From the IMG/VR virus record IMGVR_UViG_2663762948_000002: a stretch of DNA of 12,850 nt; one strand, written 5' to 3'. How positions within the stretch are numbered: position 1 is the first letter of the stretch; every line of letters starts with the position of its first letter. The notes under the pieces were generated by a model, which saw nothing but the letters and a program-made list of their open reading frames with translations, did no database searches and had not been told where the DNA came from. Positions 4,487 to 11,771 of this stretch are shown here, one piece after another. Source of the stretch: a virus. Its lineage: Duplodnaviria; Heunggongvirae; Uroviricota; Caudoviricetes. The translations under genes were made by a program, and so were the position numbers.

Positions 4487-4951
4487 TTACTTTAAACACT
4501 GCTCGGTTATGTATTGCTGAGCACCTTCAAGTTGGGCCTGCATCATTACCAGTCGTTCCCGGAGGGTGAAATAATCCCGTTCAGCGGTGTCTGCCAGTCG
4601 GGGGGAGGCTGCATTATCCACGCCGGAGGCGGTGGTGGCTTCACGCACTGACTGACAGACTGCTTTGATGTGCAACCGACGACGACCAGCGGCAACATCA
4701 TCACGCAGAACATCATTTTCAGCTTTCGCATCAGCTAACTCCTTCGTGTATTTTGCATCGAGCGCAGCAACATCACGCTGACGCATCTGCATGTCAGTAA
4801 TTGCCGCGTTCGCCAGCTTCAGTTCTCTGGCATTTTTGTCGCGCTGTTCTTTGTAGGCGATGGCGTTATCACGGTAATGATTAACACCCCATGACAGGCA
4901 GACGACGATGCAGATAACCAGAGCGGAGATAATCGCGGTTACTCTGTTCAT
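4487..4951 (-). CDS. Rz: Rz-type i-spanin (inner-membrane spanin), 154 aa starting at the ATG at 4949-4951.
   Basis: Near-identical by recall to lambda Rz ([15 protein letters not shown]..., [53 protein letters not shown]); N-terminal TM segment; its ATG overlaps the endolysin TGA stop (ATGA overlap) as in lambda R/Rz. Confidence 0.92.
4546..4731 (-). CDS. Rz1: Rz1-type o-spanin (outer-membrane lipoprotein) embedded in the +1 frame inside Rz.
   Basis: 61-aa ORF entirely within Rz; signal peptide with lipobox VVGC; proline-rich (PPPPP, PPP) mature region; near-identical by recall to lambda Rz1. Confidence 0.9.
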
Positions 4952-5445
4952 TGCTGACCCCACAAACAGATTTCACGCTCAATCTCACGACGAGTCATGA
5001 GACCTTTCCATTGCTTACCGCCAGCATATGTCCAGCGACGTAGCTGATCACATGCGCCTTTGATATCGCCCTGGTTTATTTTGCGAAGAAGCGTCGATGT
5101 TCTGAAATTGCCAGCACCCACGTTGTAAACGAATGAGTAAAGAGCGCCGCGCGTTGTTTCCGGTATATCGACTTTGATGTACGGGTTAATTTGTCTGGCG
5201 ACCGTGGCAAGGTCTTTATTCAAGAGTGTTTTGCATTCTGCTTTGGTATACGTTTTACCGAGCATGATGTCTTTTCCTGTATGCCCGTGACATACAGTCC
5301 ATACACCAACAATATCTTTGTATGGTATGTAGCTGACACCTTCCAGACCATCGTTACCACTTGGGCCAGTGATTAACACTGATGCTATAGCAATTGCTCC
5401 GCCACCAATAGCAGCAGCAACGACTTTTCGTAATGATGGAGGCAT
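4948..5445 (-). CDS. SAR (signal-arrest-release) endolysin, phage lysozyme of the P21 R / E. coli RrrD type.
   Basis: 165 aa; N-terminal Gly/Ala-rich weakly hydrophobic SAR segment ([18 protein letters not shown]) followed by a lysozyme-like domain; by recall nearly identical to the DLP12 lysozyme RrrD; its ATG overlaps the holin stop (TAATG). Confidence 0.9.
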
Positions 5446-5660
5446 TATTCACCTCTCGCAGCCTTGCGCTTATCTTCTTTAATCTTGAAATAAAGGTTTG
5501 TCAGGTACGTCAGCAGGCCAAATACCAGACTACCCAGCACACCGATTGCAGCCCACTGTGACGGAGTTACTCTATCGAGCAACTGTAAAAACCAGTAGCC
5601 AGCACTGCCTGCGGAGGTGCCGTAGGCAATGCCTGTTGAAATTTTGTCCATGGATTTCAT
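5445..5660 (-). CDS. Pinholin (phage 21 S-type class II holin), 71 aa with a dual-start motif (Met1-Lys-Ser-Met4). The ORF extends upstream to 5717 but the supported start is the ATG at 5658-5660.
   Basis: Two TM segments (the first Gly/Ala-rich and SAR-like), charged C-terminus [13 protein letters not shown]; MKSMDK dual start typical of S21 antiholin/holin; strong ribosome-binding site GGAGGTGAGG 4 nt upstream of the ATG at 5660; immediately upstream of the SAR endolysin. Confidence 0.88.
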
Positions 5661-5761
5661 AGCCTCACCTCCGCACGGAACGGATGGCATAGTTATTATG
5701 TGTAGGCTTTCAGACACATCAATCAGAGCCTTAATTGATATATATGCTGGAGACGATGCAA

Positions 5762-5786
5762 TATAAAAAGCTCGCCGTAGCGAGCT
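5762..5786 (-). terminator. Rho-independent terminator between the lipoprotein cassette and the holin gene (minus strand).
   Basis: Perfect 7-bp stem AGCTCGC / GCGAGCT (plus 5769-5775 and 5780-5786) with a 4-nt loop; on the minus strand the stem is followed by TTTTTAT. Confidence 0.6.
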
Positions 5787-5911
5787 AATAAAATGTATTT
5801 CTCTGATATTATGTTTATTTGTATTAGCTCAGACTTGACATCACAGGTTTCGTATATAGAACATCATCAAATCTGTCAGTTTGCTATGAATGAGATATAG
5901 TAATTGAAGAG

Positions 5912-6307
5912 CTAACCTCGCATGTCAAAGCCAGATTTCTGAAAATCTCTGTAGACTTCCGGATTGTTGAAGGCCGGAAATTTGGCTTTATGAGCTGCGG
6001 ACTTTATCGCTTCGCAATAGGCTTTATCACCGTTACTGGTAGATATTTTTAACGCCGTGCCATCCTGAGAGAATTCCATATGCAACCTGCATTTTTTCCC
6101 TTTCCAGTTATGCGGCTCATCAAGTTTGGCATTAATTGCAGCTCTGATTCCCCGCGCTTGCGCCCCCCATTCATCCTGATCATCCCAGCGTCCTGAACTG
6201 CAACTACCTGTAGCAGTAGTTTTGTGGCAATCTGAAGGGTGTAAAGGTGTGCATCCCGCAACAAAACCGACCCAAAAAGTCAACATAACGATTTTCTTTA
6301 ATCCCAC
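5912..6307 (-). CDS. Predicted outer-membrane lipoprotein with a TolA domain III-like C-terminal domain (131 aa, GTG start).
   Basis: Signal peptide MGLKKIVMLTFWVGFVAGC with lipobox VAGC and Thr at +2; GAGGAG ribosome-binding site 6 nt upstream of the GTG; C-terminal roughly 80 aa align with the TolA C-terminal domain as I recall it (GK.C.L ... DG ... C ... AK.P ... P.VY..F) and with the downstream paralog. Confidence 0.75.
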   Translation of the reverse strand: MGLKKIVMLTFWVGFVAGCTPLHPSDCHKTTATGSCSSGRWDDQDEWGAQARGIRAAINAKLDEPHNWKGKKCRLHMEFSQDGTALKISTSNGDKAYCEAIKSAAHKAKFPAFNNPEVYRDFQKSGFDMRG

Positions 6308-6457
6308 TTCTTGCTCCTCAATCCATTAAAATCTCAGCAATAGTAGTTGTTACGTCCGCCACTGGCTCAGAGCTGACTATCCGCTAAATTTAGCTCAGTG
6401 CCGTAGCTGTGTCAGAACAAACCTAAGCCGAAACCGTTTATTACAAAACAATAAATA

Positions 6458-6886
6458 TCAGGGTTTAAAATCCAGCACCCCATTTTGAAATACTTTATAT
6501 ACTTCCGGCGAAGGGGGGGCAGGTATATCAGCATTCTTTATCGCATTCATCGCTTCACGACATAAATCGAGGTCTCCACTTTCTCTTTTAACCTCCAGTA
6601 GAAGGCCATTCGGGGCCATATGCATTCTCAGTGTACACTCTTTTCCTGAATACTTACTCGCATCCCCGAACTGTTTTTCGATGGCGCTCTTGATTTGATG
6701 GGCATACAGACGGATATCCTCACTAACATCAGAAGTACGTTCAGATGAACTCACATACTGTGTCTCTATTGCTTTATCGGAGTAATATGATGTACGGTCA
6801 TGATAATTTGTCGATACAGCATCAGTGCACCCGATAATAATCCCACTAATAATCAACGTAAGAATTGATGCGCTACGAAAACCCAT
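6458..6886 (-). CDS. Predicted outer-membrane lipoprotein with a TolA domain III-like C-terminal domain (142 aa), paralog of 5912-6307.
   Basis: Signal peptide MGFRSASILTLIISGIIIGC with lipobox IIGC and Thr at +2; GAGGA ribosome-binding site upstream of the ATG at 6884-6886; C-terminus (IKSAIEKQFGDASKYSGKECTLRMHMAPNGLLLEVK...DLCREAMNAIKNADIPAPPSPEVYKVFQNGVLDFKP) strongly resembles E. coli TolA domain III, which by recall ends ...KPPSQAVYEVFKNAPLDFKP. Confidence 0.8.
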   Translation of the reverse strand: MGFRSASILTLIISGIIIGCTDAVSTNYHDRTSYYSDKAIETQYVSSSERTSDVSEDIRLYAHQIKSAIEKQFGDASKYSGKECTLRMHMAPNGLLLEVKRESGDLDLCREAMNAIKNADIPAPPSPEVYKVFQNGVLDFKP

Positions 6887-6916
6887 TTTTCCTCACATAT
6901 GTCATATAGTAAAGGA

Positions 6917-6945
6917 TTATATATACCGTTGTTTTGGACGCTCAA
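6917..6945 (-). promoter_or_regulatory. Putative sigma70 promoter for the lipoprotein cassette.
   Basis: On the minus strand: -35 TTGAGC (plus 6940-6945), 17-bp spacer, -10 TATAAT (plus 6917-6922); predicted start about 25 nt upstream of the 6886 ATG. Confidence 0.45.
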
Positions 6946-7477
6946 ACAGCGAATCAGATCAAATAAAACGCACATTTGTTAACATTTACACAAAGTCTGC
7001 GTGGGATATTCTGAAAGAATATCCATAATGTGGAGAGAATCTATTGAAGTGCATGGTGCCGGGTGCCTCCCGGTGAACAAAATGTTCGTGATACCTGTCG
7101 GCGACAGAAAAGGTTAATGGTATCACCCCACCGCACAGGGGGATTCACCATGCAGGAGTTTTCTTAGCAAACTCACTGCGCGCCCGGCAACTCCCAACCA
7201 CATAAAATGCGGAGTTTGTGGTATTTATGCATATAACTCGCAGGAATTATCTTAAAAAACTGATGTCGATCCGGATTAAAAAGAAGCAGGTCATCATCAG
7301 ATGACTGGAAAAAAGGAAAACAAAAAATACTCATCATACAGTTTTGATTGCAGGGATGAGCCTGCTATGCACAATATGCAGAATATAAGCAAGATAAAAA
7401 TATGCAGGCATATTATTTCGGATTTTGTTATTAACACAACCTTTTTAATAATCATTTGGCATACAATAAACCAGCCC

Positions 7478-7503
7478 AAAAAGAACCGCCTAAACAGGCG
7501 GTT
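7478..7503 (-). terminator. Rho-independent terminator (minus strand) between the Q-proximal region and the lipoprotein cassette.
   Basis: Stem AACCGCC / GGCGGTT (plus 7484-7490 and 7497-7503) with a 6-nt loop; on the minus strand it is followed by CTTTTTGGG. Confidence 0.6.
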
Positions 7504-7823
7504 GGTCAATACAAAGGATGCTTCGTCTTTATTATAGTAATCTGAGGCGTCGGGTGTCTTGTATCAGACAACATATTGTCCCGCTAAACAGCGAATTACA
7601 AACCACCCTGCAATGATCTCTCATCTCATTTTATATGAGTTGACGACATCAGGATAACGCATCATCAGCCCCTGCCAAGAAATATCAAAACTCCCGCCAG
7701 CAATGTGTTATCACAATATTGTAAAAAAAACACAGCACCGAAACTATAACTGGTCTCTGTTATAATTTGGAGCAGAAAGACCAGTTGCCCAACTAGCAGC
7801 ATTCTCCCCTGCTTTCCTGACGT

Positions 7824-7850
7824 AAAAAAACCGCATTAAGCGGTTTTTTT
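7824..7850. terminator. Bidirectional intrinsic terminator about 80 nt downstream of the putative Q gene; candidate tR'-like terminator of the late leader.
   Basis: Perfect palindromic hairpin AAAAAAACCGC-ATTAA-GCGGTTTTTTT: a GC core flanked by an A7 and a T7 run, so a U-tract follows the stem on either strand. Confidence 0.65.
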
Positions 7851-7930
7851 ACGATGTCCATGTCTGCAATCCGCCTCGCGATACAGCTTTGCGAAGCATA
7901 GCAAAATTGAAGCAGTTTATACGTAAGAAA

Positions 7931-8473
7931 TCAAGCCATTTTCTCAGCAAATGATTCACGCATGGGAATATATAGGGCATACTCAGCAACAGCTAACCAA
8001 TTAGCAATCCGTTTTTCGCATGTGCTAAAACACCACTCTGGGTGTGCATCATTTAGCAATTCAGCCATTTTGCGCTTAGTCATCCCCCGCCCTTCATAGC
8101 GTTGCCGGAGAATGCAAATCAATCCTGGATGCTCTGCCAGCACCTCACTTATGACTCGATCAATACATAACGCCTCTGCATCAGTACAATGCGCCAGCCA
8201 GCTCTTTTGCTTGCCGTTGATCATCTCTCGCAAAAACGCTTCCAGCTCAGCTTTCTCTATTCCCGCTTTTTTCATTCTGCGCAGGGCTTCATTAATGGCT
8301 GTTTTCGTCAGTTTTTTGGATGCCAACAACTGATTGAACATATTCCCTGACCTGCCACCGCCAATATACGACCAGCGCCCCCACATACGTAGTTTTCCCT
8401 GAATCCAGACACTTTCCAGCGTGGTGAGGCGAAGGTGTTCTCCGCTTTTTCCTGTATTCGTTGGGTAAATCAT
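7931..8473 (-). CDS. Putative late-gene antiterminator Q (Q21/Q82-like family), 180 aa.
   Basis: Occupies the Q slot, last gene of the nin-type operon and immediately upstream of terminators and the lysis cassette; start overlaps the stop of the upstream YbcO-like gene; N-terminal W..WGRW motif and a C-terminal helix-turn-helix-like segment resemble non-lambda Q proteins. Family assignment is from memory, not a search. Confidence 0.55.
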   Translation of the reverse strand: MIYPTNTGKSGEHLRLTTLESVWIQGKLRMWGRWSYIGGGRSGNMFNQLLASKKLTKTAINEALRRMKKAGIEKAELEAFLREMINGKQKSWLAHCTDAEALCIDRVISEVLAEHPGLICILRQRYEGRGMTKRKMAELLNDAHPEWCFSTCEKRIANWLAVAEYALYIPMRESFAEKMA

Positions 8474-8760
8474 AAATGACCTTTCTTTCTCCAGATTTCT
8501 TGTGTGCGAAAAACCCCTTCAGCATGCATCAGGCGCAATTCTTCTTTGGTGTAATCGCTGGTTTTTACCCGCCCGTCGATTAGATCGTGGCATGAGCTAC
8601 AGGCTATCGCCGCCTGCATATCGTGTGGTTTTGTCGCTGTTCCGCACGTCCCCGCCAGCCTGTAATGCGCCAGCACAGAGGTTTCGGGATTGTGATTGCA
8701 GTAGCCAGGGATTCTGATCTGGCACATCTGGCCTTTAGCCGCTTTACGTAAATTCACCAT
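8470..8760 (-). CDS. YbcO-like nin-region protein (Cys-rich putative nuclease), 96 aa.
   Basis: Aligns by recall with E. coli DLP12 YbcO (LRKAA.G..CQ.RIPG.CN.NPETSVLAH.RL.G.CGT.TKP.D...IACS.CHD.ID.R); conserved Cys/His pattern; translationally coupled to its neighbours on both sides. Confidence 0.7.
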   Translation of the reverse strand: MVNLRKAAKGQMCQIRIPGYCNHNPETSVLAHYRLAGTCGTATKPHDMQAAIACSSCHDLIDGRVKTSDYTKEELRLMHAEGVFRTQEIWRKKGHL

Positions 8761-11234: not shown

Positions 11235-11771
11235 ATGCCATTTGTTATTTATGTGTTTACTATCAGTGCCTTTGCGCTCGGACTCGCGGAATTTGTCCCC
11301 ATTGGGCTGACAGACGTTATGGCTCAGGGGTTGTGTGTGGGTGTGGAGCAGACCGGGGCAGCGGTTACAACCTATGCACTGGGGGCAACGTTCGCGGCAC
11401 CCGTACTGTCTGCGCTGACAGCAAGCTGGAGCCGGAAAAATGTAATGCTTACAACTGCCGTTGTGTTTACTGCCGGTAGTCTGGCGGCCGCGTTTGCAGC
11501 CACATTACCTCAGCTCCTGTTAGCGCGGTTCATTGCTGGTCTGGGACACGGCCTGTTTCTGGCTGCGGCATCCAGTACCGCAGCTCGTCTTGCTGGACCG
11601 GGTAAAGCAGGCAGAGCGGTGGCTGTGGTATTTGGTGGCTTTACTCTGGCGATGGCAATCGGCGTACCGCTGAGTACATGGTTGCCCGTGGAGACATTGG
11701 CACGAATGCAGATTATGTATGGAAACTGCAGGCCACTCTGGGTGCGTTGGGAATACGGAATGATTACGTGA
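11235..11771 (+). pseudogene. Truncated MFS-family transporter gene (N-terminal roughly 155 aa of an expected roughly 400 aa protein).
   Basis: ATG at 11235 with AGGAG ribosome-binding site; N-terminal half resembles MFS transporters (about 5 TM helices, loop motif LTASWSRKN); the reading frame ends after a non-MFS-like tail, only 67 nt before the next gene, with no continuation in another frame. Confidence 0.6.

Follow-up and report, generated by a model that had tools for sequence, protein, structure and literature searches.

Why would a lambdoid prophage carry, between its late antiterminator gene and its holin gene, two small genes for lipoproteins that resemble the C-terminal domain of the host protein TolA? 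The question is raised by a stretch of viral DNA of 12,850 nucleotides (nt) (IMG/VR record IMGVR_UViG_2663762948_000002, here called the window), which is the minus-strand late region of a Rac-like lambdoid Escherichia coli prophage. The two genes encode precursors of 142 residues (type A) and 131 residues (type B). An initial annotation of the window had suggested that a free, lipid-anchored TolA domain III could act as a decoy or could perturb the Tol-Pal system. We favour, at a probability of roughly 40%, the reading that each gene is an independent lysogenic-conversion gene (moron) whose product decoys Tol-dependent invaders and so makes the host tolerant to them.

The relationship to TolA was examined by profile, sequence and structure comparison. 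Both proteins scored above the gathering cut-off of the Pfam family PF06519 (TolA_C), which is 25 bits, with 82.6 bits for type A (expectation value (E) 2.4e-23) and 54.6 bits for type B (E 1.3e-14). In phmmer searches against the PDB, residues 55-142 of type A aligned without gaps to residues 334-421 of E. coli TolA at about 59% identity (E 5e-28) and residues 50-129 of type B aligned to TolA domain III at about 31% identity (E 5e-9). The best PDB match found by Foldseek for the AlphaFold model of type A was 2X9A_B (target-normalised template modelling (TM) score 0.96, root-mean-square deviation (rmsd) 0.6 Å) and that for type B, whose domain was modelled with a predicted local distance difference test (pLDDT) score of about 90, was 3QDP (TM score 0.92, rmsd 1.1 Å), both entries being E. 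coli TolA domain III. The disulfide pair of TolA (C363/C388) is kept in both proteins and both cysteines are invariant in the aligned sequences. The resemblance to TolA domain III that had been noticed from the letters alone was clearly borne out by both kinds of match, and the C-terminus of the 142-residue protein had been quoted correctly as ...VYKVFQNGVLDFKP. Type A also passed the Pfam family TonB_2 (23.6 bits, threshold 22), the only family other than TolA to pass its threshold for either protein, and TonB C-terminal domains were found by Foldseek as weaker structural matches with E above 0.01. A single PHROG family was matched, phrog_5772, which is listed as of unknown function.

Neither type A nor type B is a bona fide TolA, as both lack domain I and domain II and lie outside the ybgC-tolQRA-tolB-pal-cpoB cluster. 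The full-length TolA model NF007065 (cut-off 213) gave 107.8 bits for type A and 53.7 bits for type B, and with TIGR02794 (cut-off 59.45) type B fails at 47.2 bits and type A passes at 75.6 bits on its C-terminal end alone. The matches to TolA models were confined to the last 80-100 or so positions of the models.

In front of the domain, both precursors have a positively charged n-region, a hydrophobic h-region and a lipobox of the [LVI][ASTVI][GAS]C type, which reads ...IISGIIIG-C20-T in type A and ...WVGFVAG-C19-T in type B. The lipobox cysteine is invariant across all aligned homologues, and position +2 is threonine and not aspartate in both proteins, so that by the +2 rule both lipoproteins are predicted to be sorted to the outer membrane, in agreement with the initial annotation. 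In type A the signal peptide (residues 1-19) and the lipid-bearing Cys20 are followed by a predicted disordered linker (residues 21-50; pLDDT below 50, against about 90 over the domain) and by TolA domain III at residues 52-142. In type B, Cys19 is followed by a Cys-loop/acidic extension at residues 20-48 (CHKTTATGSCSSGRWDDQDEWG) and by a divergent TolA domain III at residues 46-131. The distance between the lipid-bearing cysteine and domain III is 25-35 residues. The extension of type B contains two extra cysteines (CHKTTATGSC) and then SSGRWDDQDEWG, and was modelled with low confidence as a small hairpin. The SSGRWDDQDEWG motif is faintly similar to the TolB box of colicins (DGSGW...W), but the spacing of the tryptophans differs.

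The residues through which TolA contacts its ligands were then compared. In TolA, strand beta3 with D418 and K420 binds g3p, colicin N (ColN) and TolB by strand augmentation (PMC7391070, PMC4339652), and colicin A contacts strand beta2 (L375-P380) together with K368, K379 and K396 (contact set from PMC7391070, PMC4339652 and PMC3365938). The beta3 sequence PLDFKP of TolA reads VLDFKP in type A and GFDMRG in type B, where the D and an R are retained, the equivalents of D418/K420 being D/K and D/R, respectively. The beta2 sequence LLDIKP reads LLEVKR in type A, a conservative set of changes, and ALKIST in type B. At the positions of K368/K379/K396 type A has H/K/K, and thus keeps two of the three lysines that make cation-pi contacts with colicin A, and type B has E/S/H. 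Judged from this comparison of contact sites, type A looks able to bind most TolA ligands and type B has probably changed its specificity. The published dissociation constants of TolA domain III are about 1 uM for g3p and ColN and 40-200 uM for TolB (PMC7391070, PMC4339652). Given that the invader ligands bind about 40-200-fold tighter than TolB, a modest dose of decoy could catch invaders at little cost.

Both genes are under purifying selection. For type B the ratio of nonsynonymous to synonymous substitution rates (dN/dS, omega) was 0.06-0.13 among prophage, plasmid and chromosomal copies, the almost invariant N-terminal extension included. Between type A variants it was 0.09-0.54 in the domain, and the linker evolved faster (omega 0.2-0.9). 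The last 40 or so residues of type A, which form the binding groove, hardly vary even between variants with an overall difference of about 35%.

The distribution of the two genes was determined in 5426 complete E. coli genomes. Type A was found in 898 of them (16.5%); its variants are 91%, 74% and 65-68% identical and are limited to E. coli and Shigella (46 clusters). At all of the eight places examined the type A variants occur alone, without type B, with a Q gene (of the DUF1133 or lambda-type Antiterm kind) on one side and a P21-type holin gene on the other, and three different Q types precede these lone copies. This slot, downstream of tRNA genes and upstream of nanS-p/DUF1378/DUF826, is the slot of stx in Shiga toxin (Stx) phages. 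The occurrence of type A with or without type B between differing Q types and the same holin family amounts to a presence/absence polymorphism. The adjacent pair was present in 759 of the genomes, and IMG/VR contained 61 viral contigs with type A and 59 with type B. The two genes do not constitute a paired system, since each gene is also found alone elsewhere; an obligate two-gene system was rejected on the same ground.

Type B was present in 1269 of the genomes (23%) at 826 chromosomal and 536 plasmid places. Its family is much broader than type A and comprises 368 clusters at 90% identity, with members from Citrobacter, Enterobacter, Serratia, Klebsiella and Raoultella that share 78-89% identity. 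The relaxase gene nikB is immediately followed by type B on over 600 IncI1/B/O/K/Z plasmids; the nikB-linked homologue is 88% identical and starts 60-160 nt 3' of nikB (6004-6435 in locus L002, 6005-6400 in L003, 4964-5395 in L021). On pO157 it is intact beside a truncated and decayed nikB. The homology between prophage and plasmid copies covers the open reading frame (ORF) and 35 nt upstream only. On the chromosomes of Enterobacter, Serratia, Citrobacter and Klebsiella type B also stands by itself, at sites that are not syntenic; further copies lie at the edge of a prophage remnant with umuDC-like genes, and on a 93-kb viral contig beside the conversion genes for Fic and an O-acyltransferase. 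The placement between Q and S that had been described holds for both genes of the window, but type B is not specific to phages: most of its relatives are carried by IncI-type plasmids and by enterobacterial chromosomes. In Serratia marcescens (loci L009 and L010, 7001-9736) a type B homologue downstream of nrdDG adjoins genes for a HEPN protein and a GmrSD_N (DUF262) protein, and this cluster resembles a small defence islet.

An exhaustive profile search of 1.84 billion representative sequences placed both proteins in a large superfamily, with 557 relatives, 229 of them at E <=1e-10. Among the best 149 of the 557 relatives, 77 are 105-170 residues long and 55 of these 77 have a PROSITE-type lipobox within the first 45 residues; none of the 55 has aspartate at +2. 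The lipobox-bearing lipoproteins form at least 55 clusters at 50% identity. All named members are from Enterobacterales (Erwinia, Klebsiella, Enterobacter, Serratia, Rahnella, Dryocola), and they are annotated merely as "TolA family" or "colicin import membrane protein". A few short relatives consisting of TolA domain III only (P0227, P0230, P0273, P0312) have a plain Sec signal and no lipobox, and these would be soluble periplasmic TolA domain III, the natural counterpart of the construct that makes strains leaky. In a rough neighbour-joining tree, drawn without support values and to be read as descriptive, type B formed a deep clade of its own and type A fell among lipoproteins near the enterobacterial TolA clade. 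The two proteins are 29% identical (E 2e-18), and on the sequence evidence they are two separate lineages of this superfamily and not the product of a local duplication.

The signals around the genes were also examined. A sigma70-like promoter sequence precedes type A and an intrinsic terminator follows type B (Table 1), the RNA fold of the terminator having a free energy of -13 kcal/mol (z = -4.4; none of 200 shuffled sequences was as stable). A promoter-like site, in the form of a consensus match, before the two genes and a strong terminator after them would make up a moron layout, in which transcripts from the cassette promoter would end before S and Q-modified polymerase would read through the terminator. 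Type A starts with ATG behind a Shine-Dalgarno (SD)-like GAGGA at 6890-6894. Type B starts with GTG, and its plasmid homologues have ATG at the equivalent codon (MGVKKIV...); this start restores a Lys-Lys n-region, which is lost from the RefSeq start at an internal ATG seven codons later. The homology to plasmid copies begins 35 nt upstream of the GTG and thus covers the SD sequence. The gene EDL933_2012 of prophage CP-933O, named "tail fiber protein", was induced 32-fold by ciprofloxacin and was equated with TolA by the authors of a transcriptome study in PLoS One (PMC11125564). "Tail fiber protein" is the label, in the style of Rapid Annotation using Subsystem Technology (RAST), of the neighbouring holin in phage mEp460_ev081; EDL933_2012 may be either a TolA domain III lipoprotein or a mis-named holin and was not used as expression evidence.

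From what the comparisons show, namely the identity of the domain, a predicted lipoprotein architecture, a layout like that of a moron, mobility, prevalence and purifying selection, we infer a scheme for cellular location, ligand binding, expression in the lysogen and protection. Each product would be exported, lipidated at the lipobox cysteine and sorted by the Lol pathway to the inner leaflet of the outer membrane, where the tether of 25-35 residues would hold TolA domain III just beneath the membrane. Uncoupled from the TolQR motor, the domain would act as a non-productive decoy that captures ligands needing energised native TolA, that is the TolA boxes of group A colicins and related bacteriocins and the N1 domain of g3p of filamentous phages, and/or the N-terminus of TolB that is exposed when a colicin binds to TolB. 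The outcome would be that the lysogen, or the host of the plasmid, tolerates Tol-dependent bacteriocins and filamentous phages. That blocking or competing for TolA can give such a phenotype is supported by two precedents: the N1 domain of g3p in the periplasm caused colicin A resistance and a 4-log fall in phage uptake (PMC10424213), and soluble TolA domain III in the periplasm affected the envelope in a dominant-negative manner (Levengood-Freyermuth 1993 and Wan & Baneyx 1998, as cited in PMC6195910). Both earlier proposals, decoy and Tol-Pal perturbation, seem reasonable in the light of the effects reported for the soluble domain.

We prefer the decoy because of the retained binding strand, the moron layout, the mobility as single genes, the interference phenotypes of TolA domain III and the affinity of the invader ligands, and this preference is backed further by the purifying selection, the high prevalence and the at least 55 lipobox clusters without aspartate at +2. 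IncI-type I pili are the receptors for the TolA-dependent filamentous phage If1, which suggests that type B on IncI plasmids serves the self-protection of the plasmid. A wider claim can be formulated, to be taken as possible but more doubtful: lipid-anchored TolA domain III might be a widespread and so far unrecognised class of periplasmic co-receptor decoys, in the form of single-gene cassettes on lambdoid prophages (in the stx slot), on IncI-type plasmids (co-transcribed with the relaxase, at the time when pili expose the cell to If1-type phages) and on enterobacterial chromosomes, which would protect about a quarter of E. coli strains against Tol-dependent bacteriocins, colicins included, and filamentous phages, and whose lineages (type A, type B and dozens of others) would be tuned to different invader ligands.

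Several observations weigh against the decoy. Type B has lost all three lysines that contact colicin A and its beta2 and beta3 strands have diverged, its strong purifying selection (omega about 0.1) carries no signature of an arms race, and its strongly conserved N-terminal Cys-loop/acidic motif lies outside what a decoy would explain. In many Enterobacter genomes type B occupies a fixed chromosomal position; some copies look like stable residents, and these could have a physiological rather than a defensive role. No family among the PADLOC-DB defence models matched either protein at E <=1. The promoter of type A is a consensus match only, in a region where the scan gave 11 promoter-like sites against 6.9 +/- 2.8 expected. 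Both genes lie in the late operon downstream of Q, and for this reason their transcription during lytic growth is certain. A decoy may also carry a cost, given that soluble TolA domain III makes cells leaky.

The way in which the genes are annotated bears on one alternative, that they are decaying captured 3' fragments of tolA and hence non-functional debris. The Prokaryotic Genome Annotation Pipeline (PGAP) and RefSeq call type A "tolA, incomplete, missing N-terminus", a pseudogene of 261 nt only (7759-8019 in RefSeq locus L001, where type B is placed at 7213-7587), and due to this call and the late start of type B many genomes have no or a truncated protein record for intact genes. The pseudogene label is an annotation artefact. 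Each ORF is intact and comes with an SD sequence, a start codon and a signal peptide of its own. In 782 genomes type A reaches an identity of 99% or more, dN/dS lies well under 1 for both domains, and neither the lipobox cysteine nor the disulfide pair varies; the idea of decaying fragments is effectively refuted by these selection and conservation data and has next to no probability left. A recent capture from E. coli tolA was also rejected, as type A had no nucleotide-level match to chromosomal tolA (in a sensitive blastn search only 898 of the 5426 genomes matched). Unlikely, though not negligibly so, is that the products are late-expressed dominant-negative inhibitors of Tol-Pal: bulk TolA domain III made from the Q-antiterminated transcript would titrate the TolB N-terminus before the holin triggers, stop the mobilisation of Pal and loosen the outer membrane, giving faster or fuller lysis, vesicle shedding or release of progeny or toxin in aid of the spanins. 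In every prophage context seen the genes directly follow Q/tR'-like elements and precede S-R-Rz, type A retains the strand that binds TolB, TolA mutants with prolines in beta3 that lose TolB binding have a tol phenotype (PMC4339652), and soluble periplasmic TolA domain III caused periplasmic leakage according to work cited in PMC6195910. But type B and most of the superfamily are on plasmids or at chromosomal sites without lysis genes, a complete spanin pair is already present in the window, the terminator before the holin and the promoter-like site upstream fit expression in the prophage state, and the affinity of TolA for TolB is weak (PMC7391070).

Less probable again is a physiological envelope modulator, in which the anchored domain would tune the dynamics of TolB-Pal/CpoB or bind another periplasmic partner and, as fitness cargo unrelated to invaders, improve envelope robustness or alter vesiculation under some condition. 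The fixed site in many Enterobacter genomes, the isolated copies among housekeeping and accessory genes in Citrobacter, Klebsiella and Serratia, and the strong purifying selection that extends to the N-terminal extension are in line with such a role, and TolA domain III is a known interaction hub (PMC7391070); against it, the insertion sites differ between genera, so that the gene looks acquired and not ancestral, it is strongly enriched on phages and conjugative plasmids, and our results point to no partner beyond the known TolA ligands. The tethered domain might also dock by strand augmentation on a Ton/Tol-box-like periplasmic segment of an outer-membrane protein, lock this receptor and so exclude superinfecting tailed phages or TonB-dependent colicins. 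Llp and Cor exemplify an established class of phage outer-membrane lipoproteins by which receptors are blocked from within the periplasm. TolA domain III shares the fold of the TonB C-terminal domain, type A passes the TonB_2 threshold, and TonB entries are among the weaker structural matches. This receptor-blocking function is a long shot, considering that identities of 59% and 31% to TolA stand against TonB matches with E above 0.01, that phrog_5772 as the sole PHROG match leaves no sequence relation to Cor or Llp, and that no receptor is implicated.

Table 1. Features of the window around the type A and type B genes.
Feature	Position	Strand	Basis
Type A gene (142-residue lipoprotein precursor)	6458..6886	-	intact ORF, Pfam TolA_C, AlphaFold/Foldseek
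Type B gene (131-residue lipoprotein precursor)	5912..6307	-	intact ORF, Pfam TolA_C, AlphaFold/Foldseek
sigma70-like promoter TTGAGC-18 nt-TATAAT, about 30 nt upstream of the type A start	6916..6945	-	consensus scan, 10/12 matches
Shine-Dalgarno sequence GAGGAG, 6 nt upstream of the type B GTG	6314..6319	-	read from sequence
Intrinsic terminator AGCUCGC-UACG-GCGAGCU then UUUUUAUAUU, between type B stop and holin	5760..5786	-	terminator scan
STnc100-family small RNA-like element, full length, directly upstream of the type A promoter	6997..7183	-	Rfam RF02076, 86.6 bits (gathering score 47)
Q-like late antiterminator	7931..8473	-	DUF1133 Pfam PF06576, E 2.5e-107; borderline Phage_antitermQ PF06530, 26.1 bits (gathering score 26)
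P21-type holin S (essD-like)	5445..5717	-	Pfam PF04971; RefSeq annotation of identical locus
Lysozyme, Rz and Rz1, after the holin	4948-5445, 4487-4963 and 4546-4731, respectively		Pfam PF00959, PF03245 and PF06085 among matches

The order of genes in the window is DUF1367, YbcO nuclease, the DUF1133/Q-like antiterminator, about 1 kb of non-coding DNA, type A, type B, the P21-type holin, lysozyme, Rz/Rz1, trkG and ynaK, so that an antiterminator and a holin gene flank the pair as had been described, and the limits that had been given for the pair agree exactly with the two ORFs. Phage mEp460_ev081 shares a block of 99% identity with the window (blastn; 5444-7077), which begins in the middle of the STnc100 element, takes in the two lipoprotein genes and finishes where the holin gene ends, and outside this block its Q and lysozyme differ from those of the window. 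In the Rac prophage of K-12 MG1655 (1417000-1428000) ydaW is followed by truncated rzpR/rzoR and directly by trkG; a deletion from ydaW to the middle of rzpR has removed Q, both lipoprotein genes, S and R, and as a result the K-12 laboratory strain lacks type A and type B. Compared with the locus of strain ECCHD184 (L001), which is otherwise 99% identical, the window diverges between about 9727 and 10711, and near 11684 about 1.3 kb of L001 (12455-13748) is absent, whereby the gene for a major facilitator superfamily (MFS) transporter is truncated and a gamma-glutamylcyclotransferase gene upstream of a LysR regulator gene is gone.

The non-coding DNA upstream of type A contains further elements. 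The STnc100 copy of the window has a 3' hairpin without the U tract of the model's terminator. In related prophages, which also have tRNA genes and an AsxR match here, there are up to five STnc100 copies, four of them in tandem and the fifth shortly after the type A gene; copies elsewhere were located at 5536-5748 and 7508-8487 in locus L070, 5704-5877 and 6599-7061 in L018 and 5811-5863 in L064. In the Q-S region these elements may be a late leader, terminators or small RNAs. Two further stretches on the minus strand of the window, 7484-7560 and 7824-7897, draw attention: a promoter-like AAGACA-18-TATAAT with a strong terminator-like hairpin AACCGCCTGTTTAGGCGGTT and a T run some 30 nt behind it might be the pR'/tR' of the DUF1133 Q-like protein, and just after the Q gene there is an isrK-like match below threshold (21.6 bits).

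Natural E. coli strains vary greatly in colicin sensitivity and about a third to half of them produce colicins, and the known forms of colicin tolerance are receptor or tol mutations, which are costly. If the decoy reading is true, 16-23% of sequenced E. coli would possess a tolerance factor that is mobile, low in cost and encoded by a single gene, which would alter views on bacteriocin warfare, bacteriocin therapeutics and the host range of filamentous phages, and mimicry of a host periplasmic co-receptor would be a new principle among the defences of mobile elements. Should their effect instead be a weakening of Tol-Pal at lysis, the proteins would represent a new kind of accessory to lysis or vesiculation, located at the Shiga toxin gene site of Stx phages. 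That the genes are hidden in annotation, one of them under a tolA pseudogene label, and that both are absent from K-12 is probably why they have been overlooked experimentally. The initial annotation knew of no characterised function, and we found no paper that characterises or discusses mobile-element TolA domain III lipoproteins in the full-text literature, a search that left out most subscription journals so that the absence is not proof. Already known are the domain and the family as they are visible in databases (Pfam, PGAP names, phrog_5772); new is the occurrence of a known hub domain in a widespread, lipid-anchored and mobile architecture.

With TolA itself (domain III of E. coli, residues 334-421; PDB 1TOL, 1S62, 2X9A, 3QDP/3QDR) type A and type B have in common the fold of three helices and a three-stranded sheet, the disulfide pair and the ligand-binding beta3 strand. 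TolA also has a TolQR-coupled domain I and a long helical domain II, whereas the lipoproteins are borne by mobile elements and would be anchored in the opposite membrane; without domains I and II and with this anchor they would be unable to transduce force. Other phage-encoded outer-membrane lipoproteins that change host susceptibility are Llp of T5, Cor of phi80, N15 and HK022, and Bor of lambda, of which Llp and Cor act on FhuA. These are likewise small phage-borne outer-membrane lipoproteins encoded by single-gene morons near the lysis or late region and presumed to act from the periplasmic side, but there is no relationship in sequence or fold, and type A and type B copy a domain of a host periplasmic hub instead of being binders of receptor barrels. 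The engineered soluble periplasmic TolA domain III, a signal-sequence fusion used to make E. coli leaky, is similarly a free domain that has no coupling to TolQR, and it is dominant-negative on Tol-Pal; this construct is an artificial and overexpressed soluble protein, whereas type A and type B are predicted to be lipid-tethered, have linkers of their own (in type B the conserved Cys-loop) and are maintained by selection. The immunity that filamentous phages confer through periplasmic g3p uses the same interface of TolA domain III and results in colicin tolerance together with filamentous-phage resistance (PMC10424213). The decoy proposed here would be its mirror image: in g3p immunity a ligand of the invader blocks the receptor of the host, and in the present case the ligand of the invader would be sequestered by a copied host receptor.

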